Part shown: piece by piece, positions 4,655 to 44,195 of the stretch
Layout of the letters: each line of letters opens with the position of its first letter
Position numbering within the stretch: position 1 is the first letter of the stretch
Source of the DNA: Candidatus Latescibacterota bacterium
GTDB lineage: Bacteria > Krumholzibacteriota > Krumholzibacteriia > LZORAL124-64-63
Direction: 5' to 3'
NCBI GenBank assembly: GCA_030658975.1
Contig: JAUSBL010000052.1
Location: 42,954-106,953, forward strand
Length of the DNA: 64,000 nt
Program-made: the position numbers and the translations under genes
The notes under the pieces: generated by a model
Databases searched by the model: none
Told to the model about the DNA's origin: nothing
What the model saw: only the letters and a program-made list of their open reading frames with translations

Positions 4655-4704
4655 TCTTGAATTGTTGGCCGCAAGGGTATTCGTTGTCTCCCCACTTCCG
4701 GAAG

Positions 4705-7517: not shown

Positions 7518-7518
7518 C

Positions 7519-8511
7519 TCAGTTCCCCGAAGTCGCAGGGCGCCCGCGGACCAGAACCCAACCGCATGCCAGCACGAATCCGAGCGCGGCTCCGCCCAGG
7601 GCGATCAGCGATCGGCTCGGGGCAGAGCGGACGAAGGGTACCGTCGCTGAATCAAGCACCTCGATCGCGATCACATCCTTGTTTTCGTCGATCTTGGCAA
7701 TTTCGAGCTGCCTTTTCAATTCGATCCAAACCGCTGTCTGGACCTGCAGGTCGCGGGTCAATTCCGTATGGCGTCGGTTAAGTAACGGAGAGGTTGCGAA
7801 GGACCGGTTCTGCGATTCGAAGTCCGCCAGGCTGGATGCGGCCGCATCGAGTTCGATCCGGATTTCATCGAGCCGATCCGAGATGAAGCGTCTTTGCTCC
7901 GAGGCCCTGCCCCGCGACATCTCCTGGAGGTAGGCGTCGAGTTCGCCGGCGAGCGCATTTGCCAATTCCGCCGCGAGTTCGGGCCACCGGGGAAGGCTGA
8001 CGCTGATCTGCATGTAGCCCGTTGCGGCGCGGCGCTCGAAGGAAATGACCTGCCGCCTGAGGTTGCTCTTGAAGCGCTCCCGCTCGGCCCATGTCTTGAC
8101 CGGAGCGTCGGGGTGCTTGCGCGACCCGAGCAGCTCCATCAACGGCCTGGGATCGTCTCCGGCATATCTGCTCCACTGTTCGTCGAGTATCCGGTCCAGC
8201 ACCCTGTTGGAAGTGATGATCTGGCCATAAAGGTCTTCGTAGGTGGGCCCGTTGCCGAGTTGCATGTTCGTCAGGGACGCGAGTTGACCCAGTAAATTCT
8301 GTTGGGTGCCCTGGTCGCGCGGCAAGAGCGATACCCGGGCCGTATAGATCGGCGGCAACAGCAGAGAGATCACGGCGGCGATGACGCCGCAGATCAGGAT
8401 CACTGCGGCGATCAGGCGTCGGCTCCTCCACATCAACCTGGTCAATTGCACGACACCGATCTCGTCGTCGCCCGTCGATGCCGGCATTTCGTCGTACGTC
8501 CGTGTCATCAC
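7519..8511 (-). CDS. Wzz/GumC-like polysaccharide chain-length determinant (no kinase domain)
   Basis: 330 aa. N-terminal TM then LLPPIYTARVSLLPRDQG (Wzz motif), coiled-coil region, C-terminal TM. No Walker A/B BY-kinase domain. Confidence 0.7.
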   Translation of the reverse strand: MMTRTYDEMPASTGDDEIGVVQLTRLMWRSRRLIAAVILICGVIAAVISLLLPPIYTARVSLLPRDQGTQQNLLGQLASLTNMQLGNGPTYEDLYGQIITSNRVLDRILDEQWSRYAGDDPRPLMELLGSRKHPDAPVKTWAERERFKSNLRRQVISFERRAATGYMQISVSLPRWPELAAELANALAGELDAYLQEMSRGRASEQRRFISDRLDEIRIELDAAASSLADFESQNRSFATSPLLNRRHTELTRDLQVQTAVWIELKRQLEIAKIDENKDVIAIEVLDSATVPFVRSAPSRSLIALGGAALGFVLACGWVLVRGRPATSGN

Positions 8512-24970: not shown

Positions 24971-25139
24971 CGCACAAAATGGAGCGCGGGTTCCCGAAAG
25001 GGGAGTCCTGTTTTTTGCTTAATGGTAATATTCAACGCCATCCGGCGATCTCCCAGCACCTTGACAGCGGGCGTTCCCCCTGCGATTGATGGGATGATAC
25101 GCTCCATCAGCCCGATTCCTGCCTTCCCGGGGGTCCCCG

Positions 25140-26999
25140 ATGGCGTCCCCTCGCCAGCACCGCAACTTTAACATCATGCCGCTCTTGATGTTACTGCTCT
25201 TGGTGCTGGCCGCCGCCGCCGGCTGGCGCTGGCAGGCCTGGTCGCGGGCGATCAACCTCATGCTGCCCGAAGGCTCCCGGCCCGCCCGCATGACCTTCGC
25301 CGTCGAGGAACACGACCGCGACGGCTTCGAACTGGTCGCCAGGAGCCTGGACCTCGAGTTCCGGCGCAACTTCGACCACGTGGACCGCTTCCGCGAAGCC
25401 GGCATCCGCTCCTACCGCGGCCCCGAGACCTGCCTGGTCTGCCACCGGGAGATCGAGTTCGTGAACACCTACGGATTGCCCCGCCGCGAGGATCTCATGA
25501 AGAACCTCACCGGTTCGGTGCACTACCGCTTGTTCAGCTCGGACCACAAGAATGTCCGCGGCTTCAGCGGCCGCTCGGCCGACGGCCTGCCCATGGGCAT
25601 GATCGACCGCCCCTGCCCCAAGCCGGGCTCATTCGCGATGACCGCCTGGGCCGAGTGGGTCGTCAACACGCGGGGCGACACCCTCAGCGAGGGCTGCGGC
25701 CAGTGCCACATCGGCGGCCAGGCGCAGGCCCCCCTCGGCGAGATCATGCCCCACTACAGGACGCTGCCCGAGGAGCGCGACGCCATCGACTGCCTCATCT
25801 GCCACGCCGCGGCCTACGACTTGAACCGCAGGCAGGTGGTCCGCGACGCCAACGGCCGCCTGCGCTGGGACCAGGACCGCAGCCTGCGCGCCGCCCTCTC
25901 GGTGGAGACGCCGTCGTCGCAGTCCTGCCTGCGCTGCCACCAGCACAACATGGGCGGCGACGTCTACGTCGACCCGAAGGATCCCTCCTTCACACCCTCG
26001 TCGCGCGCACGCGGCGACCGCTACCCGCGCGTGATGCACCCCGGCTCCAAGCGCGGCACCCCCTACTCGCCGTCCTGGGACGTGCACGCCGCCGCCGGCC
26101 TGGCCTGCCTCGACTGCCACCCCACCGAGGGCCACCGCATCGCCAAGGGCACGCACACCACCACGATGATGGCCAACGACCTGCCGGACGTCGAGGTGGC
26201 CTGCGAGCGCTGCCACACCGACGCACCCCACGAGGACAACACGCGCACCGCCCGCATCCTGAACGAGCACGGCACCTGGATCGCCTGCGTCACCTGCCAC
26301 ATCCCCAGCCTCCACCCCGACAACGTCACCCGCCGCGATTTCTCGCAGACGGTCCTGGAGACGGAGCAGGGCATCCACATCTACGATGATGTGGAGAAGC
26401 TGACCGGCCCGGGCGAGGGCCTTGCCTACGTCTGGTGGAACGGGGACGCCACCTTCCTCGGCAACCCGATCGGCGACAACCCCGACGGCACGTGGCGCGC
26501 CTACACGGCGCCGCACCGCTGGCCCGAGTGGGAGCAGTACGACTACGACGCCTGGTACGAGCGCGTGATGCGCCCGCTGGCGGCCGCGGGCCGCCCCAGC
26601 AAGCTGTACGCGATGAAGCGCTTCAACGGCCGCCAGCACATCGACCTGCAGAACGCCGGTCCCTTCGGCGGCATGTTCGTGCCCTACAACCTGCCCCTGT
26701 ACTACCGCGACGGCGACCCCGACGCCGCCGCCCGCGCCGAGATGGAAAAGCCCATGATGAAAATGATGTACGGCCGCATGTTCCAGATCTACCTCATGAA
26801 CCGATTCATCAGCTACATGGATGTCCCCGGCTGGAACACCCAGGCCTACGAAGACGTCCGCGCCGGCCGCCAGGTCGAGCCCCGCTGGCTGCCCGAAGAC
26901 GCCATGCTCGAGGTCAGCCACGGGGTGCGCCTGAAAGGGGCGCTGAATTGCCGCGACTGCCATGCCCCCGACGGCAGCATGGCGCCCTTCCTTCCTTAG
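25140..26999 (+). CDS. Membrane-anchored octaheme c-type cytochrome
   Basis: N-terminal TM (MPLLMLLLLVLAAAAGW) and eight CxxCH motifs: CLVCH, CGQCH, CLICH, CLRCH, CLDCH, CERCH, CVTCH, CRDCH. Confidence 0.8.
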   Translation: MASPRQHRNFNIMPLLMLLLLVLAAAAGWRWQAWSRAINLMLPEGSRPARMTFAVEEHDRDGFELVARSLDLEFRRNFDHVDRFREAGIRSYRGPETCLVCHREIEFVNTYGLPRREDLMKNLTGSVHYRLFSSDHKNVRGFSGRSADGLPMGMIDRPCPKPGSFAMTAWAEWVVNTRGDTLSEGCGQCHIGGQAQAPLGEIMPHYRTLPEERDAIDCLICHAAAYDLNRRQVVRDANGRLRWDQDRSLRAALSVETPSSQSCLRCHQHNMGGDVYVDPKDPSFTPSSRARGDRYPRVMHPGSKRGTPYSPSWDVHAAAGLACLDCHPTEGHRIAKGTHTTTMMANDLPDVEVACERCHTDAPHEDNTRTARILNEHGTWIACVTCHIPSLHPDNVTRRDFSQTVLETEQGIHIYDDVEKLTGPGEGLAYVWWNGDATFLGNPIGDNPDGTWRAYTAPHRWPEWEQYDYDAWYERVMRPLAAAGRPSKLYAMKRFNGRQHIDLQNAGPFGGMFVPYNLPLYYRDGDPDAAARAEMEKPMMKMMYGRMFQIYLMNRFISYMDVPGWNTQAYEDVRAGRQVEPRWLPEDAMLEVSHGVRLKGALNCRDCHAPDGSMAPFLP

Positions 27000-27036
27000 A
27001 TCCTGTAGTTACGATGCCCCTCAGTCAGCCCTTACA

Positions 27037-27080
27037 TGTATAGATATGTATCAATTCATGGATATATCGTACCCTATACA
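27037..27080. repeat. AT-rich palindromic motif in convergent intergenic region (cytochrome / dsrC)
   Basis: TGTATAGATATGTATCAATTCATGGATATATCG followed by CTATACA (inverted copy of TGTATAG). Related to motif at 46390..46410. Confidence 0.4.
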
Positions 27081-27406
27081 CATCCATCTGGTTTTGGAAG
27101 ACCAGCGTATTTGCAGGCGCCGTGGGCGGGCCCCTTGGGAAACAGCTCGTAGATCCGGCTCAGCTTGAAGCCGGTCTCCTGGCAGAGGAGGCGGACCATC
27201 GGGGCGCGGTCGAGGCGGGACCAGTACGCGCGCAGGAACTCCAGGACCCGCCAGTGCTCGGCGGTGAGTTCGGGCAGACCGTCGGCGGCGGCCAGGGCGG
27301 TGGCGATCGCGGGGGTCCAGTCGTCGGGGTGGACCATGAAGCCATCGTGATCGACGGTCAGGCGCACGCCGTCGTACTGGAAGAGTCTGGGATCCCCGCT
27401 CGCCAT
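27074..27406 (-). CDS. dsrC: DsrC/TusE-family sulfur-relay protein with both conserved C-terminal cysteines
   Basis: ORF trimmed to ATG 27406 (GGAGGG SD). C-terminus ...HGACKYAGLPKPDGCV, i.e. Cys-X10-Cys-Val-COOH, the DsrC signature. Confidence 0.8.
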   Translation of the reverse strand: MASGDPRLFQYDGVRLTVDHDGFMVHPDDWTPAIATALAAADGLPELTAEHWRVLEFLRAYWSRLDRAPMVRLLCQETGFKLSRIYELFPKGPAHGACKYAGLPKPDGCV

Positions 27407-27541: not shown

Positions 27542-28327
27542 TTACCGATACAGCGTCTTGACCGTGCCCCAGGTCATGTCCTCGTTGGCGACGGTGCCCA
27601 GGTCCTGGAACGTGATGTTCGCCCAGTCGACCTGGACGTAGCCGTTCAGGTCGCCCTGCTGCAGGAACTGCAGGAAGTCGCCGCCGACCTGGGCGTTGTC
27701 GAGCATGCCCCAGGTCCCGTAGGGCTCGGCGGGGTTGCCCATGTCGAAGGCCAGCGCGCCGCTGGTGTACGGCGTGCCGCCGATGGTGACCTTGTACTCG
27801 ATCGTCGCCGGGGAGCCCGCGTTGAGGCTGTTGGGCATGTACACGACTTCGGCGTGCACGGTCTCGCCCTTCACGTAGTGCAGGCCCTGCGAGGCGGTGA
27901 AGCTGTAGAAGGGCAGCCGGCCGCCGAAGCAGGCGATCTCGCCGTCGTTGGTGCGGAAGTTGAAGGCTCCGCCCACGGCCTGGGACCACCACGGGGCGAT
28001 GGCCAGCGTGGCCTCGGCCTCGCCGGTGCCGCTGATGGTCAGGTCGCAGCTGTAGCTGAACCCGTCGCCGTTGGCGAAGTTCTGGGCGACGCCGCCGTCG
28101 GCGAAGCGCCAGTTGTGGCGGCTGCCCCAGCCCGCGCCGCACATGACCTTCTGCTCGTGGATGGAGACCAGGGCGCTGTAGTTGTTGGTGCTGGTGACGG
28201 TGCCCAGGGGGCAGTCGTTCCAGATCCGCTCGGTGATTACGGCGCCGTTGGGCACGTTGGTGGCCAGGGCCACCGACGAGATGGCCAGCAGCAGCGCCAG
28301 CAGCATCAGCTTATGAGTCGTCTTCAT
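27542..28327 (-). CDS. Secreted hypothetical protein (signal peptide, 4 Cys)
   Basis: MKTTHKLMLLALLLAISSVALA signal peptide. No recognisable family. Within the T9SS/TBDR operon. Confidence 0.6.
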   Translation of the reverse strand: MKTTHKLMLLALLLAISSVALATNVPNGAVITERIWNDCPLGTVTSTNNYSALVSIHEQKVMCGAGWGSRHNWRFADGGVAQNFANGDGFSYSCDLTISGTGEAEATLAIAPWWSQAVGGAFNFRTNDGEIACFGGRLPFYSFTASQGLHYVKGETVHAEVVYMPNSLNAGSPATIEYKVTIGGTPYTSGALAFDMGNPAEPYGTWGMLDNAQVGGDFLQFLQQGDLNGYVQVDWANITFQDLGTVANEDMTWGTVKTLYR

Positions 28328-28435: not shown

Positions 28436-30059
28436 TCAGCGCACCAGGATGCAGCGTTTCCAGACCTTCTCCCGGTCGGACTCCAGGGAGTAGAAATAGG
28501 CACCGCTGGGCAGGCCCTCGAAGTCGAGGGTGACCTGGTGCCCCCCTTTGTCCTGCGATTCGTCGACGTAATTGCGGACCATCCTGCCGCGGGCGTCGTA
28601 CACGCTGAGCGTGACGCGGCCCGGCTGCGCCAGGCTGTAGGCGACGGTCGTGATGCCGTTGCAGGGGTTCGGCGAGTTCTGGCCGAGTACGAGGCCGGAC
28701 GCGGCCGCGTCCCCGGCCGCCACGGTCGTCGCGGCCGTGAAGCCGGCCAGTTCCAGGCCGCGGCAGACGTCGGGGTTGCCGCCGAAGCGCTCCCAGACCG
28801 ACCCGGTGCGGTAGTTCTCGATCATCATGATGATGGGGCCCTGGTCGATGCCCAGGTAGTCCTGCGCCCACCAGAAGCGCGTCAGGTTGAACGCGTCCTT
28901 GAAGCCGTACTCGCCCCACAGGGCCAGGCGGAAGGAGTCCCAGAACTTGTGCAGCGTGGGGATGACGATCTCCGGCGCGAAGGCGATCGAACCGCCCGCC
29001 GCCGTCGGGGAGATCGTGCCGTTGTCGTTCTGGCCCGGGGGCGCGCCGTGGGCCACGTAGCCGTCGGGATCGATCGACGCCGTCAGCCCCCACACGTCCC
29101 CCGCGTAGCCGACCCAGCCGCGCGGGTTGGCGATGCAGTACTCGCGGGCGGCGAGCGTCGCCCGGCGGGAGTTCTCGTGGTAGGTGATGCCCCGGTTGCG
29201 CATGTAGGCGTCCTGGATGTGACGGAAATCGATCCAGCAGTGGCTGTACTGGTGGCCGAAGAGGGGGGGGAAGATCACGTACGTCTGCCCGTACTGGGTT
29301 CCCCACCAGTAGCCGAGCGTCCAATTATACCACGTCCAGGCGGGCACCGGATGGGTCGGCGAGCCGATGGCCAGGATGTAGAGGATCATGGCCTCGTTGT
29401 AGCCGGTCCAGTCGCCGAAGCCGGAAAAGCCCGTTCCGGGCTTCCAGCCCATGCGGATGCCGTTGCCGCCGTTGCGCATGAAATCCCAGTCCACGCGGTA
29501 GTAGATGGAGTCGGAGAGGGCGCGCAGGTGGGTTTCGCGGTCGCCGGGGCCGTCGAAGTACTCCTTGGCGTCGAGGATGCCGGCGATCAGCAGCGCCGTG
29601 TCGATCGACGACAATTCGCAGTCCCAGGTGCGGACGCCCGTATTCAGGTCCAGGAAGTGGTAGAAGAACCCCTTGTAGCCGTTGACGTTGACCGCTTCGG
29701 GGCCCTGGGGCACGCTCCACAGCTTCTCCAGCCCGCGGATGATGCGCTCGCGCGCCACGTCGCGGGCGACCCAGCCGTGATCGACGGCGATGCAGTAGGC
29801 GGAGTAGCCGAAGCCCTGCGCGGCGATGCTGCAGACCGACCAGTCCTGGCTGCCGTCCTTGATCAGGCCGGAGCCGACGCTGGCCTCCTCCCAGAAGTAG
29901 TCGAACGCGGTGTGCTGCAGGGTGTCCAGCAGAGCCTCGGTGGTCAGGGCCCGGGCGCTGGGGACCGGAGCGAACAGGGCCGCGGCGACCAGCGCGACGA
30001 AGAGCGCAACCGACAGGGACCGCCGACGGCCGGGTTCGCGCTGCTGGGTGGTCGACATG
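28436..30059 (-). CDS. Six-hairpin glycoside hydrolase-like protein (GH144/DUF3131-like, putative endo-beta-1,2-glucanase) with T9SS C-terminal sorting domain
   Basis: ORF trimmed to ATG ~30059 (MSTTQQ..., GGAGG SD), signal peptide. GFFYHFLD, FGHQYSHCWIDFRHIQDAYM blocks shared with gene at 54117..55616. C-terminus LGQNSPNPCNGITTVAYSL...LSVYDARGRMV...GAYFYSL is a Por_Secre_tail-type CTD. Confidence 0.7.
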
Positions 30060-30081
30060 TCGGTGCCTCCGGTTTGCGGGA

Positions 30082-31101
30082 CTAGAACCTGATCAGGAAC
30101 GAGAGCCGGTGCGTCGCCTCGAGGTAGTCGTGGCTCGCCCACGCGTAGTCGAACTGGTAGCGGTTCGCGCCGAGATCGCCGCCGACGCCGAAACCGCCGG
30201 TCAGGCCCTGCTCCGAATCCTCCTGGAACAGCGTCTGGTAGCCGAGGCGCAGCGCGAACAGCTCGCGCCAGGCCCACTCGGCGCCCAGGTTCACGCTTTC
30301 GGTGTTGTCGTTCGGGTGCAGGGCGTCGCAGACGAACAGCAGCTGGTTGTCGTCGTCGAGGCAGTACGGGACGCTGACTCCCAGGCGGAACTGGATCGGC
30401 ACCGGGAAGCGGTCGGTGGACTGCTCGCCGGGCAGGGCGCTGTTGTCGCCGTGGATGTCGGGGTCCTCGTCGTACTGGATGGCGAGGTCGCGGCCCGAGT
30501 AGCGGCCCTGCGTGCCGATGTTCGTCAGGCAGAAGCCCAGGCTGATCCCGTCGTCGGTCAGCCGGTAGTGCGTGCCCGCGTTGAAGGTCAGCACGTTGGT
30601 CGACGTGTGCCAGACGCGCTCGTTCACGTAGTTCAGCTGGATGCCGGCGGTGAACCGGCTGGTGACGCGGCGGCCGTAGCCCAGGCCGAGCGCGGCGTTG
30701 CCGACGTTGAACTTCTCGCCCGTGCCGAGGGGCTCGTCGACGGTGCGCACGTCGATGTCGCCGGACTTCAGCGAGGTGATGCTGGCGAACAGGTTGCCGC
30801 CGCCGACCGGCAGCAGCGCCGCCGCGTAGTCGTAGCTGATGTCCGCGAACCAGAAGCTGTGCGTGAACTGGATCTCGGCCGACTCCGGCAGGCCGATGGC
30901 GCCGGTGTTGAAGTAGACCGCTTCGACGCCGCCGGCCAGGCCGACGCCGGCGTTGCCCATGCCGGCGTGGCGGGCCCCGGGCTCGATGCGCAGGAACTGG
31001 CCGATGGTCGTGCCGACCTTCGACTGGGCCATGGCCTGGCCGCTCAGGAGCACCGTCAGCAGTACAAGCGCCGCTCGCTTCATGTCTCTCCTCGCGCTCA
31101 T
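30082..31101 (-). CDS. PorV/PorQ-family T9SS outer-membrane beta-barrel protein
   Basis: Extracted from 1195-aa artefact. ATG 31101 overlaps upstream stop (ATGA). Signal peptide. GARHAGMGNAGVGLAGGVEAVYFNTGAIGL matches the PorV/LptO N-terminal motif. Ends ...SFLIRF (C-terminal Phe). Confidence 0.7.
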   Translation of the reverse strand: MSARRDMKRAALVLLTVLLSGQAMAQSKVGTTIGQFLRIEPGARHAGMGNAGVGLAGGVEAVYFNTGAIGLPESAEIQFTHSFWFADISYDYAAALLPVGGGNLFASITSLKSGDIDVRTVDEPLGTGEKFNVGNAALGLGYGRRVTSRFTAGIQLNYVNERVWHTSTNVLTFNAGTHYRLTDDGISLGFCLTNIGTQGRYSGRDLAIQYDEDPDIHGDNSALPGEQSTDRFPVPIQFRLGVSVPYCLDDDNQLLFVCDALHPNDNTESVNLGAEWAWRELFALRLGYQTLFQEDSEQGLTGGFGVGGDLGANRYQFDYAWASHDYLEATHRLSFLIRF

Positions 31102-34100: not shown

Positions 34101-34388
34101 GCCGCTGCCCTTGGGCACCTCGACCGAGTGGAAGACGCTCAGGTCCACGTTGGACGGGTTCGGGGGGTAGTCGCCCACCATGCCGTAGTTCCAGAAGATG
34201 GTGCGGATGTTGTTGGCGTCGTGCTGGCCCGAGCGCTCCAGCGTGTGCCGGCCCCGCTGCTCGGGCGGCACGGGCGTGGGCACGTCGGCGGACGCCGTCA
34301 GGGCGAGCGCCACGGTCATCAGCGCTGTCAGGGCAGCCAGGGCCGCGTTCTCTGGTCTGTACATCCTGCGGGGCCTCCGTTCGCGCAT
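31098..34388 (-). CDS. Large T9SS cargo protein (~1096 aa) with Asp-rich Ca-binding (TSP3-like) repeats, Fn3-like region and C-terminal T9SS sorting domain
   Basis: Extracted from 1654-aa artefact. Start ATG 34388 (ATGA overlap with TBDR stop) or ATG 34364 (GGAGG SD). Repeats DNDEDGFVDE, DGLDDTGDEGERDGIPTEGEPNFDGTDLNESD. CTD ...VVPNPYIGSA...IRIYNVRGELV...GLYIYHV...GKFAVIK. Confidence 0.7.
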   Translation of the reverse strand: MRERRPRRMYRPENAALAALTALMTVALALTASADVPTPVPPEQRGRHTLERSGQHDANNIRTIFWNYGMVGDYPPNPSNVDLSVFHSVEVPKGSGMNYSDGITPFVLTKIVQGNGVESYIMETGFRERQGISPYTNRMMRFEPRPGYLQADPALNSGLSPAISNDPRTWPPSWPDRLDDPADPGWPGAWNGYFGKQIVADQESYVVLDDDYYDAWYFFPDSRDSTRNGLGLRLEVRGFQWANPQARNVIFWHYDITNEGTTDYDDNVVFGLYMDSGVGGSALSCDGIYESDDDNAYFDRTFDDQILNLVYTWDRYGHGRDLSSACARTGYLGYAFMETPGNALDLIDNDEDGFVDERRDGGPGALIVGQDAIAAHVAANYDLARFEITYGPLAEMPAYVEGLWWTGDEDLDWVAANHDIGADGLDDTGDEGERDGIPTEGEPNFDGTDLNESDQIGLTGFRINRIRAGQGNPDQTTDGIVFFTNSDDWPRRLYEQFTDPDPEVRFGEPLASNYNIGFFFASGPFKLRAGQTERFSLALAYGADLEELRRGVRTVQRIYDANYRFAVPPPLPTLTAEAGDGFVRLAWNDVAENSADPVTGEFDFEGYRIYRSTDPDFVDPQVITTGTGSGPLGNGRPIAQFDLDNGRSGFSTQIVDGVAYYLGTDSGLTHTWTDYSVTNGQRYYYAVTAYDYGSEAFEFYPSENAIAPSRTPRGGLVLPPNVVDVRPNPRALGYVPATADTATQVAGRGFGSISVAILNSDIVPDGHLFKIRFATPSADSLRATSYALVDSTTGEILFTSGSDFDALGVGQVGAGMMPLISSARAVSVDEAASGFSATGDTDAELAVLYQIVLPINRLRPGFPDDIVIRFSDVAEGNSIAMPFWPARPAKFTVAALARDGEIPLDFRFRDIDGDGTLSHVNDIIDVVTYLPEQPTTPVVTWRFQLNAADTPAPASPPGAGDEYTLRLNRPFAADDVFVFTTTGSRIDEAAARVGFAPYVVPNPYIGSASFEPERYAVSGRGERRLEFRGLTSSCTIRIYNVRGELVDTLRNEDSLDGYVAWNLRTKDNLDVAPGLYIYHVRTDDAQEYTGKFAVIK

Positions 34389-37054
34389 CACAGCAGACCT
34401 CCGGTGATCCTGACGCCGATCTCGATGCGCCGCGGCGGGTAGAACCGCGTCGGATCCGCGAGGATGGCGCGGTCCAGGTCGGAGAAACGCGAGTAGTAGG
34501 GGCTGCCGGTGTCGGCGAAGATCGAACCGTTGAAGTACCGGCTGTCGAACGCGTTGAAGACGCGCAGGAAGGCGCTGGCCCCGGCGCCGAGGCGCCTCTC
34601 CGCGCGCAGGTCCACGAGCATGCCGGCCGGCTTGGTGGCGGAATTGGTGTCCAGGCCGCTGCCGTGTCCGCGCTCGATGACCGGCGTGTAGGGCTGGCCG
34701 CTGACCAGGCGCACGACGGCGCTCACGTCGAGATCCTCGGCCGCGGCCACCGCGGCCGTCAGGTTCAGCGTGTGGCGCTGGTCCCAGTTGAAGGGCACCA
34801 GCCGGGGGTTGGCGTCCTCGCCGTTGGTCGCCCGCGTGAAGGTCTCGTAGGGGTCGCTGGAGTTGCCCATCGCCCGCTGCCAGGTGTAGTCGAGCGAGAC
34901 GCTGGCCGGACCGAGGCGGCGGTGGTCGAGGCTGACGGTCACGCCGAAGACGTTGCCGAAGTCGACGTTGGTCAGCCGGGCGTAGGGCACGCCCATGTAG
35001 GTGTCGACGAACTCCACGCCCAGCAGGTCGCGGACGTCCTTGTAGAAGGTCGTCACCGTGAAGCCGAAGTCCTGGTTGACCGCGTGCTTGTAGCCGATCT
35101 CGTACTGGACGGTCGTTTCGGGCCGCACGTCGGGGTTGCCCAGCACGCCGATGCGCGACTCGTCGCCAGCCTGCAGGTTGGCCACGACGTCGTAGTTCGC
35201 GTTGTTGAACATGGTGCCGATGGCCGGGAACTGCCGGAAGTGGCCGTACGCGAAGTGGATGGCCGCGTAGTCCTCGATGGGGTAGGCGACGCCGATGCGC
35301 GGGGAGACGGACATCTTGACGGTCGTGTCCTGCGGGTGCGAGAGCGGGGCCCCCTCGATCGCGTTCGCCGGGTTGGCGAGGTCGCTGGGGATGGTCGAGT
35401 TCGCGTCGAAGTACTCCAGGCGCAGACCCACGCGCACCTTGATGTCGGGGTACTCGGCCTGGTCCTGCAGGAAGATGGCCCCCATGCGCGGGTGGTAGGT
35501 CTGCACGGGCAGGAAGGTCGGCGGCCGGTTGAGGTAGCGGGTCAGCTGCTCGACGACCTCGCCGTCGACGCTCTCGCTGGTGAAGACCAGGTGGCCGGGC
35601 GTGCCGTACTGGACCTTCGGCGCGCTGACCTCGAAGCCCGTCTTGAGCTGGTGCTCCTGCGAGACCTGGCTGACCAGCGCGCTCTTGATCACCCAGTCGT
35701 CGGTCTTCTGGTAGAAGCGCGTGAAGTCGTAGCCCTCCACCACGGCGCCGTACTCGTAGTTGACGGTGCCCTCGGCGCCGCCGCCCGCGTCGTAGCGCGG
35801 GTCGTAGACGTCGGCGAAGGCGAAGTCCTCGTACTCGACGAAGTTCTCGCGGATGCTCAGGTCGAGGTACGTGGCGTCGCCGAAGGTGCGGGTCAGATCC
35901 AGGCCGTGGGTGATGGAGAAGCGGTCCTGCTTCGAGAGCCCGTCGGGATTGAAGCGGTAGGCCCAGCTGGTGCGGCGGCTCTCGTTCCAGCCGACCAGGG
36001 CCTGGTAGTTGAGCTTCAGGCCCGCGAAGGCGGTGTTGGTCAGCTTGACGACGCCGCTCCACTCCCGGTTGTAGCCCAGCGGGACCGACTCGTTGTCGCC
36101 GGAGGGGTTGAACTCCATCCGCGCGAAGTCGTTGTCGTCGGTGGGCAGGAAGCGCCGCGTGGCGTAGATGTAGTCGTTGAAGATCGAGCGGCGGGCGCTG
36201 GCCAGGAACACCGTGTCGCGCAGCGGTGTCGGCCCGCTGGCCGACGCCTGGAAGTTCAGGATGCCCGTGGGATGGATCGTCTCGTCGGCGCGGCGGTCGG
36301 CGCCGCGGCCGGGGAAGACGAAGCCGCCGGTGGAGGCCTCGCCGCTCCAGGCGAACTCCGAGGTCCCCTGCTTCAGCACGGCGTTCACGACGCCGCTCAT
36401 GGCCTGGCCGTACTCGGCGTCGAAAGTGCCGCTGATGACCTGCACTTCCTGCAGGAGCGAGCGGTCGACCGAGACGATGGACTTGTTGTCGAAGGCGTTG
36501 TTCACGCTGACGCCGTCGACCTGGTACTGGACCTCGCCCGTGCGCCCGCCGCGGAAGTGCCCGTCGACGACGCCCGCCTGCAGGTTCACGACGTCGTTCA
36601 GCTCCTGCACCGGCAGGGCCTCGATGTCCTCGCTGGTCAGCGTGGTCTGGGAGCTCGTCATGGCGAGCTCCACCGGCGGCCGCTCGGCGGTGATCACGAC
36701 TTCGGCCGCGCGGAGCGTCGTCTCGCCGAGCTTGACGTCCTGGCGGGTCGTGTTGTCCGAGGACACGGTCACGTTGCGGATCGTCAGCGGGTCGAAGCCG
36801 AGGCGCGTGATCTTCAGGTCGTAGGCGCCCGGCGCCACGTTGAGGATGCTGTACTGCCCCTCGGCGTCCGTGTAGGCGCCGAGGCGCGTGCCGACCACCA
36901 CGACGGTGGCGGCCGCCACGGGCTTGCCGTCGGCGTCGAGGATGCGGCCGGCGATGCGGCCGGTGGTGCCGCCCCGCACCTGCGTGGCCGCGGCGAGCAG
37001 CAGCAGGATCGCGAGCGTCAGAAGGATCGGTTTCGCCCCGGCGGTACGGCTCAC
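34388..37054 (-). CDS. TonB-dependent receptor with N-terminal carboxypeptidase-regulatory-like domain
   Basis: 888 aa. Signal peptide, GRIAGRILDADGKPVAAATVVVVG...YSILNVAPGAYDLKITRLGF (CarbopepD_reg), then plug (TonB-box region, EALPVQELNDVVNLQAGV) and long beta-barrel region. Confidence 0.8.
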   Translation of the reverse strand: MSRTAGAKPILLTLAILLLLAAATQVRGGTTGRIAGRILDADGKPVAAATVVVVGTRLGAYTDAEGQYSILNVAPGAYDLKITRLGFDPLTIRNVTVSSDNTTRQDVKLGETTLRAAEVVITAERPPVELAMTSSQTTLTSEDIEALPVQELNDVVNLQAGVVDGHFRGGRTGEVQYQVDGVSVNNAFDNKSIVSVDRSLLQEVQVISGTFDAEYGQAMSGVVNAVLKQGTSEFAWSGEASTGGFVFPGRGADRRADETIHPTGILNFQASASGPTPLRDTVFLASARRSIFNDYIYATRRFLPTDDNDFARMEFNPSGDNESVPLGYNREWSGVVKLTNTAFAGLKLNYQALVGWNESRRTSWAYRFNPDGLSKQDRFSITHGLDLTRTFGDATYLDLSIRENFVEYEDFAFADVYDPRYDAGGGAEGTVNYEYGAVVEGYDFTRFYQKTDDWVIKSALVSQVSQEHQLKTGFEVSAPKVQYGTPGHLVFTSESVDGEVVEQLTRYLNRPPTFLPVQTYHPRMGAIFLQDQAEYPDIKVRVGLRLEYFDANSTIPSDLANPANAIEGAPLSHPQDTTVKMSVSPRIGVAYPIEDYAAIHFAYGHFRQFPAIGTMFNNANYDVVANLQAGDESRIGVLGNPDVRPETTVQYEIGYKHAVNQDFGFTVTTFYKDVRDLLGVEFVDTYMGVPYARLTNVDFGNVFGVTVSLDHRRLGPASVSLDYTWQRAMGNSSDPYETFTRATNGEDANPRLVPFNWDQRHTLNLTAAVAAAEDLDVSAVVRLVSGQPYTPVIERGHGSGLDTNSATKPAGMLVDLRAERRLGAGASAFLRVFNAFDSRYFNGSIFADTGSPYYSRFSDLDRAILADPTRFYPPRRIEIGVRITGGLL

Positions 37055-39049: not shown

Positions 39050-40102
39050 TCATCGCTGTTGGTTCGTTTCGGGTCCGGCCGGGGTGTTCGTCGCCACCGC
39101 CGGGCGGGCCCCGCAGGAGCTGCGCACTTTCAAGATAACATCGATCGTCTGGACCGTAACTTTTCCGCCCTCGGGATCGGCCAGGGTGTCGAGCATGAGC
39201 CGCACGGCCTTCTGGCCGAGGGCGTAGGCGTCGACGTGGACGGTGGTCAGGGGGGGGCGCATGTACTGGGCCATCGTGATGTTGTCGAAGCCGACGACCG
39301 CCACGTCGTGCGGCACCGACAGCCCGGCGTTGCCCAGGGCGCTCATCAGGCCGATGGCCATGCAGTCGTTGGCCGCGAAGACGGCGGTCGGCCGCGGCCG
39401 CCGGTCCAGCAGGGCCGCGGCGGCGGCATAGCCGGAGGATTCCCGGAAATCGCCCTGGACCACGAATTCGTCGCGGGGCTGGATCCCGGCCTCCAGCAGG
39501 CCGCGGCGGTAGCCGCGCAGGCGCTCCTCGGCGTCGACGTTGCCCGCCGGCCCGGCGACCATCGCGATCTCGCGGTGTCCGAGCCCGACCAGGTGGGCCA
39601 CGGCGGCGCGGGCGCCCGAGAAGCTGGCGATGGACACGGAACTGCAGCCGTCGACGGCAAACGGCGGGCTGATCAGCACCACCGGCAGGCGGCGGCGGAT
39701 CCTGGCGACCGATTCGACGGTGATGCTGTCGGGGGCCATCATGACCAGGCCGTCGATGCGGCCGCGCATGGCGCGCGTGGCCGCCAGGACGTCCTCGACG
39801 CTGGCGTGGGAGCCGGAGACCAGGGTCTGGTACTTCTCGCGCTTGGCGAGCTGGTCGATGCCGCGGATGACTTCGGAGAAGAAATCCCCGTAGAGGTCGG
39901 GGAGCAGGACGCCGAGAGTGCTGGTGCGGTTGGTGGTCAGGCTGCGGGCGGCGCCGTTGGGCCAGTAATCGAGGGCCGAAGCCGCCGCCCAGACCTGCAG
40001 CGCGGTGTCCTCATTGACGGCGGTGTTGCCGTTGAAGACACGCGATACGGTGGCGATCGACACTCCGGCTGTCTTGGCGACATCTCGGATCGTGGCCATC
40101 AA
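39050..40102 (-). CDS. LacI-family transcriptional regulator
   Basis: MATIRDVAKTAGVSIATVSRVFNG HTH, periplasmic-binding-protein-like sugar-binding core. First gene of the long minus-strand operon, divergent from GH94 operon. Confidence 0.9.
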   Translation of the reverse strand: MMATIRDVAKTAGVSIATVSRVFNGNTAVNEDTALQVWAAASALDYWPNGAARSLTTNRTSTLGVLLPDLYGDFFSEVIRGIDQLAKREKYQTLVSGSHASVEDVLAATRAMRGRIDGLVMMAPDSITVESVARIRRRLPVVLISPPFAVDGCSSVSIASFSGARAAVAHLVGLGHREIAMVAGPAGNVDAEERLRGYRRGLLEAGIQPRDEFVVQGDFRESSGYAAAAALLDRRPRPTAVFAANDCMAIGLMSALGNAGLSVPHDVAVVGFDNITMAQYMRPPLTTVHVDAYALGQKAVRLMLDTLADPEGGKVTVQTIDVILKVRSSCGARPAVATNTPAGPETNQQR

Positions 40103-40202
40103 TCTTCTCCCGCCAACGCCTCCTGCATTGCGTCCGCACGCGCTCCCTCTCTGGCGTGCGCCCTGGCGATCCGCGCACAGGATGTGGTTTCCGTGTGCGC
40201 CA

Positions 40203-40216
40203 TGTAAACGGTTTCA
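40203..40216. promoter_or_regulatory. Candidate LacI-family operator (TGTAAACGGTTTCA)
   Basis: 14-bp imperfect palindrome with the AANCGNTT core typical of LacI-family operators. Lies in the lacI / GH94 divergent intergenic region. Confidence 0.35.
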
Positions 40217-40244
40217 TAAATTCAACCACGTGTCAACCCCCCAA

Positions 40245-40273
40245 TTGACAAATGGGCTGAAATCACCTAATCG
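40245..40273 (+). promoter_or_regulatory. Candidate sigma70-type promoter for the GH94-GH1-esterase operon
   Basis: TTGACA (40245-40250), 17-nt spacer, TAATCG. TTGACA is also half of an inverted repeat TGTCAAccccccAATTGACA. Confidence 0.3.
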
Positions 40274-40340
40274 TTGCCATGGATCCGAGGGGACCAGGAC
40301 CGATCCGCCTCGCCGTACCCCGCACAGAGAGAAGCCGCAG

Positions 40341-43300
40341 ATGGCCGAAGGTCGGTTGCCCCGAATTCCGGACCCCCGCCGGCCCACCCCGCCCGCCGCT
40401 CTGCTGGCCGCCGCCGGCACGACCACCCTGATCACGGCCCACGGGACCGGTTTCACGGCCCGAAATGGTGTGAATCTGACTCTTTGGCGGGGCGATCACG
40501 TCACCGATCGTGATGGATGGTTCTTCTATATCAGGGATCGTGAGACTTTCGACCACTGGATCCTGGGCATACCCGGGCCGTACGGGTCGTTATCGGTCCG
40601 GCGGGCCATCCGCGAGCCGGGTGTCTTCACGATCGAGCACGAGCAGGCCGGAGTCGCCGCCCGCCTGGAGGTCTGCATCGCTCCGGACGGCTGCGAGGTC
40701 CGGCGCGTCACGCTGACCAACCGTTCCGGTCAGCGCCGCTGGCTGGACCTGACCACCGCCGCCGAGGTCGTCCTGGCGCCCGCGGCGGCCCACGCCTCGC
40801 ACCCCGTCTTTTCCAACCTGTTCCTGCAGACGGAGTTCGACGCGGAGTCGCGATCCCTGCTGGTCCGTCGCCGACCCCGGGGAGCGGACGAGATCCCGCC
40901 CTGGCTGGTCCTGGCCGACCTGGGGGACGACCTGCCCGAGTACGAGACGGACCGCCACCGCTTCCTCGGCCGCGGCCGCAACCTGTTGCAGCCGGCGGCG
41001 TTGAACACCTCCGGACCGCTTTCCGGCACGACGGGCAACGTGCTGGACCCCGTGATCGCGCTACGGCGGACACTGACCCTCGACCCCGACGAGAGCGTCA
41101 GCTGCAGCTTCCTGCTGGGCGCCGCCCGGGACCGCGACGCGGCTCTGGCCCTGGTCGTCGATCGGGCCGGCCGGCGCAGCGCGGCGACCACTTTCGCCGG
41201 CGCCCGGGAACAGGCGCGCCTGGACCTGCGGTCGGCCGGACTGACGACGGCGGAAGCCTCTTACCTGCAGGATCTGGCCGGTGCGATGCTGTACGGGGAC
41301 CCGCGGTTGCGGGCCGCGCCGGAAGCCCTCGCGCGCGCCACCGCCGGGCCTGAGGATCTCGACCGGCTCGGGCTGGACGGCGATCCGCTCGGGGTCGTGC
41401 TGGACGCGCGGTCCGGCGTGGACCCGGTCCTGCGGGCGAAGCTGCGCGCGGCGGTCCGCTACTGGCGGACCCTCGGCCTGGAGACGACGCTGATCGAACT
41501 GGCTGCCGGAGGGACCGCCGACGGCGACGTGGACGGCGTCAGGACGATCCCCCCCGGCGATCTGAGCTCCGGCGACCTCGACCTCGTCCTGGCCCGCGCC
41601 CGCCTGGTGGTGCGCGACCGGCTGCCCGATCTCGCCGTGGCCCCGGCCGAGCCCGCCGCCGTCGCGGCCTGGCCCCGCGCCGCGACGACCCACGCCGCGC
41701 CGCCGCCGCTGCCGGATGCCGCCGCCTCGCTGAAGTACTGGAACGGCTTCGGCGGCTTCGCGCCGGACGGGCGCGAGTACGTGATCCGGCTCGTCCGCGG
41801 ACGCGACGGCCGCCTGGTCCTGCCGCCCCAACCCTGGGTCAACGTGGTGGCGAACGAGGCGTTCGGTTTCCTGGTCGGCGAGACCGGCGCCGGCGCCGTC
41901 TGGAGCGTCAACAGCCGCCAGCGCCGGCTGACGCCCTGGGCGAACGATCCGGTCGGCGATCCCCACGACGAATCGTTCTTCGTGCGCGACGAGGACGACG
42001 GCGTCTTCTGGTCCTGCCTGCCTGGACCCCGGCCCGGCGAGGGCGACTACGAGATGCGCCACGGCTTCGGATACAGCCGCTGCCTCCACGAGAGCCGCGG
42101 TCTGGCCCTCGACACGCTGCTGTTCGTAGCGCGCGACAAGCCGGTGCGCTTCGTCCGCGTCGGCGTGACCAACCGCGGCCCGTCGCTGCGCCGGCTGTCC
42201 GTCTTCGCCCACAGCCGCCTGGTCCTGGGCGACCGCCCCGCGTCCGACGGCCGCCAGGTGGTGACCGGGCGCGGCGACACCGACGGCCTGCTGTTCGCGC
42301 GCAACCGCCAGGCCGGCGCGCACGCGCAGCGGACGGTGTTCGGCGCCGTCATCGCCGGCGAGACCGCGCATCTGCGCGCCTGCGGCGACCGCGCCTCCTT
42401 CCTGGGCGACGGCGGCGCTCCCTCCGACCCGGAGGTCCTGCGCCGCGGCGATCTCGAGGGCCGGGTCGGCGCGGGCCTCGACGCCTGCTTCACGCACCAG
42501 GCCACCTTCGAACTGAAGCCCGGCGAAAGCCTCGACGTCGTGGTGCTGTTGGGAGACGCCGCGGACGCCGACGGCGCGCGCGACCTGGCCGCCGCGATGG
42601 CCGCCGACGGCGCCTGGCGCCGCGAATTCGCCGCCGTCGACGGCTTCTGGCGCGGGCTGCTGTCCGCCGTGCAGGTCTCGACCCCCGCGCCGGCGCTGGA
42701 CCTGATGGTCAACGGCTGGCTGCCTTACCAGACGCTGTCGTGCCGGATCTGGGGCCGCACGGCGCTGTACCAGTCCGGCGGCGCCTTCGGCTTCCGCGAC
42801 CAGTTGCAGGACGCCTCGTCGCTGGCGCCGCTGTGGCCCGCGGCGCTGCGCGGACAGATCCTGCTGCACGCCGGTCACCAGTTCCGCGAAGGCGACGTGC
42901 TGCACTGGTGGCACACCCCCGACGACCGCGGGCTGCGCACCCGCTTCGCCGACGACCTGCTGTGGCTGCCCCTGCTGGCCGCCGACTACGTGCGCGCCAC
43001 CGGGGACCGCGGCGTGATGGCCGCGGTCGCGCCGTTCCTCGACGCGCCGGCGCTGGACCCCGGCGAGGACGAGCGCTTCGTGAAGGCCGTGCCGTCCGGC
43101 GAGAGCGCCGACCTCTACGACCACTGCTGCCGCGCCCTGGATCGCTCCCTGGCCGTCGGCGCGCACGGCCTGCCGCTGTTCGGCTGCGGCGACTGGAACG
43201 ACGGCATGAACCGCGTCGGCCGCGAGGGCCGCGGCGAGAGCGTGTGGATGGCGTTCTTCCTCTGCGCGGTCATCGAGGCGTTCGCGCCGTTCTGCGACGA

Positions 43301-44195
43301 GCGCGGAGACGACGTCCGCGCCCGCCGCTACCGCGATCACGCCGCGCGCCTGCGCGAGTCCGTCGAGCACGACGGCTGGGACGGCGCCTGGTACCGCCGC
43401 GGCTACTACGACGACGGCGCGCCGCTCGGCACCGCCGGCGACAGCGAGTGCCGCATCGACGCCCTGGCCCAGTCCTGGTCGGTGCTCTCCGGCGCCGCGC
43501 GCCCCGATCGCGCCGCCGCCGCGCTCGACGCGGTGGAGCGGCACCTCGTGGACGAGGAGCATGGCCTGATCCGCCTGCTCGCGCCGCCCTTCGTCGACAC
43601 GCCCCACGACCCCGGCTACATCAAGGGCTACGTCGCGGGCGTGCGCGAGAACGGCGGCCAGTACACGCACGCCGCCCTGTGGTACGTGCGCGCCGTGGCC
43701 GAGGCCGGCCGCAACAACCGCGCCCTGGCCCTGCTGGAGGCGATCAACCCGGTCAACTTGTCCGACACCGCGGCCCGCGTCGCCGTCTACCAGGTCGAAC
43801 CCTACGTCGTCGCCGCGGACGTCTACGGCGCGGCGCCTCACGTCGGCCGCGGCGGCTGGACCTGGTACACCGGCTCCTCGGGCTGGATGCACCGCACCGC
43901 CCTGGAGTCGATCCTGGGCTTCCGGCTCGCGGGCGGCGACGCGTTCGAGCTGCGCCCGTGCGTGCCCGACGACTGGCCGCGCTACGGGATCGCCTGGCGC
44001 GCGCCGGATGGCGCGACGACCTACGACATCGAGGTGCTCAATCCCGACGGCCGCGCCCGCGGCGTGGTCGCCGCCACGCTCGACGGCGCGCCGCTGGCCT
44101 GCACGAACGGCGGCGTCCGCGTGCCGGTCGCGTGCGACGGTCGCGCCCACCGCGTCGAGGCGATCCTCGGCGACGTCCCCGGGAGCGCGTCGTGA
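40341..44195 (+). CDS. GH94 glycoside phosphorylase (beta-1,2-oligoglucan phosphorylase / cyclic-glucan-synthase C-terminal domain-like)
   Basis: Trimmed from 1396-aa ORF to ATG 40341. About 1284 aa. Catalytic-region motif LPLFGCGDWNDGMNRVG (GH94 GDWND) and FRDQLQD. Size matches long GH94 members rather than about 800-aa cellobiose phosphorylases. Confidence 0.75.
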   Translation: MAEGRLPRIPDPRRPTPPAALLAAAGTTTLITAHGTGFTARNGVNLTLWRGDHVTDRDGWFFYIRDRETFDHWILGIPGPYGSLSVRRAIREPGVFTIEHEQAGVAARLEVCIAPDGCEVRRVTLTNRSGQRRWLDLTTAAEVVLAPAAAHASHPVFSNLFLQTEFDAESRSLLVRRRPRGADEIPPWLVLADLGDDLPEYETDRHRFLGRGRNLLQPAALNTSGPLSGTTGNVLDPVIALRRTLTLDPDESVSCSFLLGAARDRDAALALVVDRAGRRSAATTFAGAREQARLDLRSAGLTTAEASYLQDLAGAMLYGDPRLRAAPEALARATAGPEDLDRLGLDGDPLGVVLDARSGVDPVLRAKLRAAVRYWRTLGLETTLIELAAGGTADGDVDGVRTIPPGDLSSGDLDLVLARARLVVRDRLPDLAVAPAEPAAVAAWPRAATTHAAPPPLPDAAASLKYWNGFGGFAPDGREYVIRLVRGRDGRLVLPPQPWVNVVANEAFGFLVGETGAGAVWSVNSRQRRLTPWANDPVGDPHDESFFVRDEDDGVFWSCLPGPRPGEGDYEMRHGFGYSRCLHESRGLALDTLLFVARDKPVRFVRVGVTNRGPSLRRLSVFAHSRLVLGDRPASDGRQVVTGRGDTDGLLFARNRQAGAHAQRTVFGAVIAGETAHLRACGDRASFLGDGGAPSDPEVLRRGDLEGRVGAGLDACFTHQATFELKPGESLDVVVLLGDAADADGARDLAAAMAADGAWRREFAAVDGFWRGLLSAVQVSTPAPALDLMVNGWLPYQTLSCRIWGRTALYQSGGAFGFRDQLQDASSLAPLWPAALRGQILLHAGHQFREGDVLHWWHTPDDRGLRTRFADDLLWLPLLAADYVRATGDRGVMAAVAPFLDAPALDPGEDERFVKAVPSGESADLYDHCCRALDRSLAVGAHGLPLFGCGDWNDGMNRVGREGRGESVWMAFFLCAVIEAFAPFCDERGDDVRARRYRDHAARLRESVEHDGWDGAWYRRGYYDDGAPLGTAGDSECRIDALAQSWSVLSGAARPDRAAAALDAVERHLVDEEHGLIRLLAPPFVDTPHDPGYIKGYVAGVRENGGQYTHAALWYVRAVAEAGRNNRALALLEAINPVNLSDTAARVAVYQVEPYVVAADVYGAAPHVGRGGWTWYTGSSGWMHRTALESILGFRLAGGDAFELRPCVPDDWPRYGIAWRAPDGATTYDIEVLNPDGRARGVVAATLDGAPLACTNGGVRVPVACDGRAHRVEAILGDVPGSAS

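Follow-up and report, generated by a model that had tools for sequence, protein, structure and literature searches.

A predicted membrane-anchored octaheme cytochrome c from Candidatus Latescibacterota in a long-form branch of the Otr superfamily

The 64,000-nucleotide stretch of Candidatus Latescibacterota DNA analysed here (contig JAUSBL010000052.1; the window, that is, the whole stretch at its full length) carries an open reading frame (ORF) at 25140..26999 (+) encoding a 619-aa octaheme c-type cytochrome. Profile and fold comparisons indicated that this cytochrome is a full-length but remote homologue of the octaheme protein Otr from Shewanella oneidensis, with the same predicted fold, and that it belongs to a long-form subfamily which is distinct from canonical Otr and has itself never been characterised. 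We hold with moderate confidence that it is a periplasm-facing, membrane-anchored cytochrome c of this long form which acts as an Otr-like terminal or detoxifying reductase. It represents a widespread, mis-annotated respiratory cytochrome, of which the window protein is an unusual member with a Met at position 154 and a changed C-terminus.

The ORF is real, its GC content by codon position (0.64/0.48/0.95) being typical of coding DNA in a window of 69% GC, and among all ORFs of the window only this one has at least two CxxCH motifs. The start codon is ambiguous (M1, M13 or M17), and near-identical proteins at NCBI are called at 603 or 619 aa. A motif scan of the translation located eight canonical CxxCH motifs at aa 98, 186, 218, 263, 323, 355, 383 and 604, confirming the length and heme count given by a first-pass annotation of the same DNA. 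That annotation had placed six hemes in the first 390 aa, whereas there are seven, within aa 98-387; the heme-free segment of about 220 aa that it described ahead of the last heme does exist (216 aa, 388-603, with heme 8 at 604). It had also suggested looking for further distal ligands and CX15CH-type sites. No CXXCK, CX3-4CH or CX11/15/17CH motif, including the CX15CH type, occurs in the 619-aa cytochrome, and seven non-motif His are conserved throughout the superfamily. C159 is the sole Cys outside the CxxCH motifs. The features of the protein are as follows.

aa 9-32, 25164..25235 (+): N-terminal hydrophobic helix, probable uncleaved signal-anchor
aa 34-48: juxtamembrane motif WSxxINxMxPxxSRP, conserved in the family across phyla
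aa 98-102, 25431..25445 (+): heme 1 motif CLVCH, invariant in the family
aa 152-164, 25593..25631 (+): loop MGMIDRPCPKPGS, aligned with the Lys56-bearing loop of Otr
25599-25601: Met154, codon ATG, at the position of the Lys ligand of heme 2
25614-25616: Cys159, the only free Cys, invariant in the family
aa 186-190, 25695..25709 (+): heme 2 motif CGQCH, putative catalytic heme by homology with Otr C74-H78
aa 218-222, 25791..25805 (+): heme 3 motif CLICH, aligned with Otr DCLICH
aa 263-267, 25926..25940 (+): heme 4 motif CLRCH
about aa 270-300: long-form-specific insertion after heme 4, with invariant H269 and H300
aa 323-327, 26106..26120 (+): heme 5 motif CLDCH
aa 355-359, 26202..26216 (+): heme 6 motif CERCH
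aa 383-387, 26286..26300 (+): heme 7 motif CVTCH
aa 388-603, 26301..26948 (+): heme-free C-terminal domain of beta-sheet and helices, homologous to the Otr C-terminal domain
about aa 445-485 and 535-580: two long-form insertions in the C-terminal domain
aa 604-608, 26949..26963 (+): heme 8 motif CRDCH

The best NCBIfam match of the cytochrome is TIGR04315 (tetrathionate reductase family octaheme; E 2.3e-22, best stretch aa 312-398, below the cut-off), and Pfam Cytochrome_C7 was passed at aa 314-387 (cut-off 24.8 bits). Not passed were the models for DmsE decahemes (TIGR03508, 34 bits vs a cut-off of 192.2), NrfH (TIGR03153, 13.1 bits vs 134.2, E 0.07), NrfA (TIGR03152, 8.1 bits vs 692.5; PF02335, 15.2 vs 24.1) and NapC/NirT (PF03264, 10.1 bits vs 24.1, E 0.68), nor was any remaining NCBIfam model. 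These scores, together with the count of eight hemes, agree with the first-pass view that the protein is neither of the NapC/NrfH kind nor an MtrA-type decaheme. In a single-sequence phmmer search of all PDB sequences, 1sp3 (Shewanella oneidensis Otr) was the sole significant relative (3e-8; 19% identity), and a profile of 36 family members retrieved it with E 5.6e-19, aligning heme motifs 3-8 and a C-terminal LDWxxLGY tail. Further hhalign comparison of the family with an alignment of Otr and short Otr-like proteins from the representative search, in which the Otr sequence was mostly rebuilt from printed alignments, gave a probability of 100% and E 8.4e-87 over 400 columns, spanning query 82-629 and template 36-444 of 447, that is, the whole length of Otr. 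The heme motifs align one-for-one with those of Otr (seven, a long heme-free domain, then one).

Structure prediction pointed the same way. The AF2 model built from a more diverse alignment (pLDDT 92.8, pTM 0.91), which superseded a first AlphaFold model from a shallow alignment (pLDDT 66.7, weak 1sp3 match), had 1sp3 as its only significant Foldseek match in the PDB (E 3.5e-15; TM 0.42 by query and 0.58 by Otr length, 559 columns). Proteins of the NrfA, HAO, ONR, MccA, OcwA, Mtr, OmcA and OmhA types were not among the Foldseek matches. Across the PDB comparisons HAO, ONR and MccA gave no sequence or fold match, and NrfA chains reached only E ~0.01-0.1 over one heme-motif stretch. Because Otr too has seven plus one hemes and a long C-terminal domain free of heme, the first-pass suggestion of an unclear family or a new arrangement finds no support, profile-profile and fold comparison both leading to Otr. 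Its other suggestion, the HAO/Otr/Onr/MccA superfamily, holds once narrowed to the Otr branch. Full-length homology to a characterised family, which it had named as refuting its view, was indeed found with Otr, albeit remote at 19% identity and below the curated cut-off. Otr itself has been described as an outlier within the NrfA/HAO/MccA group by structural comparison (PMC9250108).

More than 669 homologues were found in a collection of 5.8 billion proteins, and outside the near-identical clade of the window protein the best of them are ~625 aa long and 60-68% identical. Long-form loci numbered 338 in GTDB species-representative genomes; the context counts given below refer to the 80 best of these 338 related loci, or 81 with the window. 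All 80 lie in metagenome-assembled genomes (MAGs), assigned to Zixibacteria, Krumholzibacteria, Ignavibacteria, Calditrichia, Bacteroidota, KSB1, Marinimicrobia, Cloacimonetes, Gemmatimonadales, Aminicenantes, other Acidobacteriota and a few others, so that the subfamily spans the FCB phyla and Acidobacteriota. Sequence conservation suggests strong purifying selection on this widely spread family. Its members appear in public records as "hypothetical protein", "cytochrome c3 family protein" or "nitrite reductase". The long form exceeds Otr and the short Otr-like proteins (~440-470 aa) by ~180 residues; its additions are the N-terminal helix, the juxtamembrane motif (WSxLINxMLPxDSRP), ~60 helical residues and four insertions (one past heme 1, one from heme 4 to heme 5 and two in the C-terminal domain). 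Some genomes carry two long-form paralogues (L005 and L084 in MAG JADJYS01; L037 and L067 in MAG CAZAZQ01). Both JADJYS01 paralogues are Met-type and are 94% and 90% identical to the window protein, and only L005 keeps a dsrC neighbour.

The single N-terminal anchor noticed at first pass was recovered by both hydropathy and structure prediction. Only one hydrophobic segment is present, at aa 8-32 (Kyte-Doolittle, 19-residue window, maximum 2.29), and AlphaFold models a single long helix at aa 9-32. No consistent signal-peptidase motif was seen across the family, and the segment is probably an uncleaved signal-anchor. Signals of the lipoprotein type (e.g. ...VVAGC, ...FLAGC) occur in several short forms, suggesting that membrane association by other means is common in the superfamily.

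Seven non-motif His (H80, H128, H316, H332, H364, H377 and H594) are conserved across the whole superfamily, which is the number required as distal ligands of seven bis-His electron-transfer hemes. In Otr, heme 2 (C74-x-x-C77-H78) is ligated by the sequence-distant Lys56, according to Mowat et al. (2004) as cited in PMC3769277, and is the penta-coordinated heme of the N-terminal module (PMC9250108). The recovered Otr segment, RGK56KNSINNFC64VAISSNEPRC74TSC77H78, agrees in numbering with PMC3769277. The family consensus of the matching loop is PMGK154INRPC159PKPGSF, and hhalign placed window residues G153-M154 on Otr G55-K56. Of the 188 non-identical family sequences, 181 have Lys at position 154 and the remaining seven have Met. 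The Met forms are the window protein, five relatives 88-95% identical to it (P0001, L005, L006, L007 and L084) and L039, which is an independent case, being 61% identical to the window protein and having K-type proteins as its nearest relatives. The divergent long-form protein P0129 also has Met at the equivalent position, and the substitution is independent in L039 and P0129. The window codon, ATG, is one base from AAG, and only F150L and Y452W covary with Met154 in the window clade.

Among short Otr-like representatives, the Otr-Lys56 position likewise alternates mainly between Lys and Met. Superfamily sequences with Met include P0129, P0165, P0169, P0185, P0198, P0207 and P0223, those with Lys include P0146, P0151, P0162, P0173, P0194 and others, and F, E, V or L is found in a few. 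No description of this alternation was found in the papers searched. A strict choice between Lys and Met at the ligand position of a homologue is what would be expected of an axial ligand. In addition, the C-terminal tail [LMI][DN][WF]xxLGY (LDWxxLGY, ~20 aa), conserved in Otr and essentially all other complete family members, is lost in the window clade (L005, L006, L007, L084 and P0001 compared). The C-terminus of this clade (window 26949-26999, aa 604-619) reads ...CH-x-x-DG-[SG]-[ML]-[AS]-x-FLP, the window protein ending in ...DGSMAPFLP, and L039, the independent Met form, retains the tail. The long form further has five invariant His of its own (H136, H269, H300, H339 and H500). C159 lies five residues past position 154, and Otr Cys64 eight past Lys56; a literature search found no account of a role for Cys64.

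Based on these data, we propose that the cytochrome would be exported via the Sec pathway, receive its hemes in the periplasm and stay tethered to the cytoplasmic membrane. Electrons would enter from the quinol pool through a partner encoded elsewhere than next to the cytochrome gene, and hemes 1 and 3-8, predicted to be bis-His, would form a wire feeding heme 2. As in Otr, heme 2 would be ligated by residue 154 of the heme-1/heme-2 loop instead of the His of its own CxxCH motif, which would leave a free face for a small substrate, with the invariant Cys159 in the same loop. The substrate would most likely be a small inorganic nitrogen or sulfur oxyanion, that is, nitrite/hydroxylamine or a tetrathionate- or sulfite-like species. 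Otr-type enzymes show in vitro reductase activity with nitrite, hydroxylamine and tetrathionate, and a role in sulfite metabolism has been suggested too (PMC12949373). In the window clade, a single AAG to ATG change would have produced Met154, which should give heme 2 a different potential or coordination and thereby affect the substrate range or catalysis; it may either retune the catalytic heme or, together with His190, yield a six-coordinate transfer heme. In our rough estimate, reduction of a sulfur compound and reduction of nitrite/hydroxylamine are possible to the same degree, neither being probable by itself, while a non-catalytic electron carrier and some other function are each less likely again. 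As a more speculative extension, the long-form Otr homologues might constitute a widespread unrecognised terminal reductase family of FCB/Acidobacteriota anaerobes, in which Lys/Met154 would be a superfamily-wide axial-ligand switch defining two functional classes (for instance by substrate, or catalytic vs electron-storage), with the window clade representing a Met-ligated type with a remodelled C-terminus.

Several points weigh against assigning an Otr-like reductase function. The cytochrome scores 79.6 bits against TIGR04315 and does not reach its cut-off of 375 bits; no physiological role has been established for Otr itself (PMC12949373); and our literature search found no paper on the long-form subfamily and no member that had been studied. 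No respiratory gene besides the cytochrome gene was seen in the 64-kb window, nor was any conserved redox-partner or substrate-indicating neighbour found at the 80 loci. The window protein has Met instead of Lys at the Otr Lys56 position, and an apo AlphaFold model gives no read-out of heme ligation. Finally, the equivalence of C159 and Otr Cys64 is ambiguous, with alignment programs differing, because the superfamily has two loop types, GK-x4-C-x-x-PGS and GK-x4-NDFC.

The absence of adjoining catalytic or partner genes is also what would be expected if the cytochrome were a pure electron-transfer module, in which Met154 and His190 would make heme 2 a six-coordinate His/Met heme and the eight hemes would serve as a wire or store between the quinol pool and soluble periplasmic partners. 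Met is a classical sixth ligand of electron-transfer hemes c, which fits such a module, as do the replacement of Lys by Met in a protein that otherwise stays the same (F150L and Y452W alone covary) and the existence of superfamily members with neither Lys nor Met at the 154-equivalent position. On the other hand, Met can also serve a five-coordinate heme as its one protein ligand, as in heme 1 of NrfH, the Lys that ligates the five-coordinate catalytic heme of Otr is kept by 181 of the 188 members, and the invariance of Cys159, H136, H269, H300, H339 and H500 exceeds what ligation needs, so we consider a pure electron-transfer role rather unlikely. A Lys-ligated catalytic heme is the hallmark of NrfA, and this favours a specifically ammonia-forming nitrite/hydroxylamine reductase with NrfA-like function on an Otr scaffold, as do the name "nitrite reductase" given to some homologues at NCBI and the in vitro preference of Otr for nitrite and hydroxylamine over tetrathionate (PMC12949373). 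Those names are uncurated, however, with no NCBIfam or Pfam nitrite-reductase model passed (TIGR03152, 8 vs 692; PF02335, 15 vs 24), no nap or nrf gene occurs among the flanking genes of the 80 loci, the window protein lacks the Lys at position 154, and both the invariant free Cys beside the ligand and the presence of DsrC within 8 kb at 7/81 loci lean to sulfur chemistry. Such a specific nitrite/hydroxylamine function is possible, and we would put it forward only tentatively.

The strongly conserved juxtamembrane motif that follows the single N-terminal helix, and the solitary gene with no separate quinol-oxidising partner encoded nearby, would also suit a self-contained quinol dehydrogenase of the NapC/NrfH/CymA kind, whose helix and hemes oxidise menaquinol directly. 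This is improbable, since homology to NapC/NrfH is lacking (PF03264, E 0.68; TIGR03153, 13 bits vs 134) and the same heme core occurs in short-form relatives that are soluble or lipoproteins, which makes the anchor an add-on and not part of a quinol site. A sub-threshold match to Pfam MtrC/MtrF domains II/IV (23.9 bits vs 30) and the secreted Gly-rich repeat genes in tandem upstream at 19/80 loci, mostly of Krumholzibacteria, might recall an extracellular electron-transfer or metal-reducing cytochrome of the MtrC/OmcA/OcwA kind, or the periplasmic part of a porin-cytochrome conduit. This is the least credible alternative, because the anchor is of the N-terminal inner-membrane type, with neither a lipoprotein nor an outer-membrane signal, no PDB fold match to MtrC, OmcA, OcwA or OmhA was obtained, and there is no conserved beta-barrel partner, the upstream repeat genes being confined to one lineage. 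The Otr-like reductase is our preferred reading.

Three reported proteins were considered for comparison and set aside. The tetrathionate-induced "otr" of Ca. Sulfomarinibacter (Flieder et al. 2021), located in metagenome contigs via its qPCR primer, is of the short canonical Otr type, so its induction by tetrathionate is not transferable to the long-form protein. Beggiatoa BOGUAY_2386 (582 aa, N-terminal helix, tetrathionate and nitrite reductase activity) was rejected as a characterised member, since the supplement of the paper groups it with Thioalkalivibrio TvNiR/ONR, at a distance from Shewanella Otr, and it hence belongs to another family. The pentaheme selenoprotein MccSep (Sci Adv 2026) gave a weak generic heme-motif match only (NF041198, 19.6 bits vs 275) and is unrelated.

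Otr is structurally solved, and its physiological role has reportedly been disputed for 20 years. With 60-68% identity across phyla, the long-form subfamily shows greater conservation than canonical Otr, and it is common in mostly uncultured sediment, soil and wastewater lineages, in which public annotation offers "hypothetical", "cytochrome c3 family" or a baseless "nitrite reductase". Naming a distinct membrane-bound Otr-type class would improve the metabolic reconstruction of these MAGs, and the natural Lys/Met exchange at the predicted catalytic-heme ligand provides a concrete pair of proteins for probing the role of the ligand and the substrate. If the cytochrome proves to be a mere electron carrier, the finding would be routine.

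Outside the cytochrome gene, the following features of the window were recorded.

27000..27073: convergent spacer, 74 bp, 59% AT (window 31%)
27074..27406 (-), longest ORF to 27484: DsrC/TusE-family gene, convergent with the cytochrome gene
28436-30277 (-), 34388-37054 (-), 39050-40102 (-), 40005-44195 (+) and 54117-55616 (-): glucan-utilisation genes

For dsrC, GGAGGGAAGG precedes the likely start codon, an ATG at 27406 that would give 110 aa. The dsrC product scored 111 bits with PF04358 and passed TIGR03342 (102.7 vs a cut-off of 53.5); with the TusE equivalog model it scored 65.5 vs 191. The C-terminal tail CKYAGLPKPDGCV has both Cys in a C-x10-C-V arm, so the two models and the tail uphold the first-pass observation of a convergent dsrC. 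A DsrC gene lies within 8 kb of the cytochrome gene at 7/81 loci, in related lineages only; its position varies from locus to locus, and it is never on the strand of the cytochrome gene. DsrC is a cytoplasmic protein and the cytochrome a periplasmic one, which makes this linkage at most a weak hint of a sulfur connection; a functional link was not adopted, and the lineage-restricted association is taken as weak synteny. The first-pass annotation had also described an AT-rich palindromic motif between the two genes. The spacer is AT-rich, with a core conserved in the closest relatives only, but the palindrome amounts to an inverted repeat of 7-nt arms (27037-27043 / 27074-27080), one of which overlaps the dsrC stop codon; the 74 bp contain zero terminator-like sites and zero Rfam matches. 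About 120 bp upstream of the cytochrome start, at 24988-25017 (+), a GC-rich hairpin is followed by a T-run (GGGTTCCCGAAAGGGGAGTCC TGTTTTTTGC). It lies in a divergent intergenic region with no + strand gene before it, and may well be a chance match, as the scan found two overlapping sites where chance alone would give 1.0 ± 1.1.

The upstream neighbours of the cytochrome gene, a DUF882/peptidase M15 gene and a CapD-type polysaccharide gene, are read from the opposite strand; downstream, dsrC is followed by a gene for a 261-aa secreted protein and a glycoamylase-like gene with a T9SS tail. The 261-aa protein (27542-28327 (-)) is predicted to be secreted, has no Pfam or NCBIfam match and occupies the same position in the close relatives L001-L004, and the synteny of a 95%-identical relative is identical. 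Beyond these neighbours, the window holds an exopolysaccharide cluster at ~1-24 kb and the glucan-utilisation locus at ~28-55 kb. Two "glycoamylase" genes (PF10091) belong to this locus, one of them encoding a T9SS sorting domain at the C-terminus, which is a pointer to an organism of the FCB group; also included are genes for a 1396-aa GH94 phosphorylase, a LacI regulator and a TonB-dependent receptor. The segment at 2001-8000, within the exopolysaccharide cluster (Wzy, Wzz and glycosyltransferase genes), has a GC content of 0.59-0.61 vs ~0.70 elsewhere and was possibly acquired horizontally.

For the genome context of homologues, which the first-pass annotation had proposed as a check, the ORFs of the 80 related loci and the window were clustered, and Pfam families were counted among the two nearest genes on each side. 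No neighbour proved broadly conserved: the highest count of any Pfam family among the flanking genes was 7, and the largest neighbour cluster covered 19/80 loci, mostly from Krumholzibacteria. At these 19 loci (L016:4179-7914, L026:3979-7824, L013:3331-7823, L017:3929-7877 and 15 more), two or three tandem genes on the same strand directly upstream encode secreted Gly-rich repeat proteins of ~290 aa (GIGIGGxGxGG...), with weak matches only, to the VC2662 and LA_2272 surface-repeat models. At L035:9912-12086 the cytochrome gene is closely followed, on the same strand, by a full-length gene for OvoA, a protein of ovothiol biosynthesis (TIGR04344, 707 bits; TIGR04345, 339 bits), and a gene of the same size occupies the same place at the Krumholzibacteria-type loci L019:9998-12106, L027:5000-7111, L042:10003-12111, L026:12891-14999 and L038:12829-14937. 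Six downstream neighbours have the DinB_2 and FGE-sulfatase domains of the EgtB/OvoA type. This adjacency may reflect lineage synteny or a thiol-redox link.

Among known systems, the cytochrome is closest to Shewanella oneidensis Otr (SO_4144; PDB 1sp3; TIGR04315), with which it has in common the arrangement of eight CxxCH motifs as seven, a heme-free domain and one, the predicted fold and the conserved set of distal His. Otr and the family also have in common the G-K loop between hemes 1 and 2 with a free Cys in it, as well as the C-terminal LDWxxLGY tail, which the window clade does not have. In contrast to Otr, a soluble periplasmic protein (~50 kDa, ~440-470 aa) found mainly in Gammaproteobacteria, the 619-aa cytochrome has a membrane helix, a ~60-aa helical extension and four insertions, one behind heme 1, one in the stretch from heme 4 to heme 5 and two within the C-terminal domain; its long form occurs in FCB phyla and Acidobacteriota and has the extra invariant His H136, H269, H300, H339 and H500. 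The two differ further in sequence (19% identity; 79.6 bits vs the 375-bit cut-off), and the window protein has Met for the Lys ligand and has lost the tail. Short Otr-like octahemes such as the otr product of Ca. Sulfomarinibacter belong to the same superfamily, with the same heme core and a GK...C loop (LGKMNTINDFC), but are signal-peptide or lipoprotein forms without the long-form insertions and make up a separate subfamily. NrfA, ONR, HAO and MccA are, like the proposed enzyme, periplasmic multiheme enzymes in which one catalytic heme with an open coordination site is fed by bis-His hemes, and NrfA has a Lys ligand as well. Unlike NrfA and ONR, the cytochrome has no CXXCK motif and does not pass the NrfA models, and unlike MccA it has no CX15CH motif for heme 8 and carries one free Cys where MccA has a Cu-binding Cys pair.

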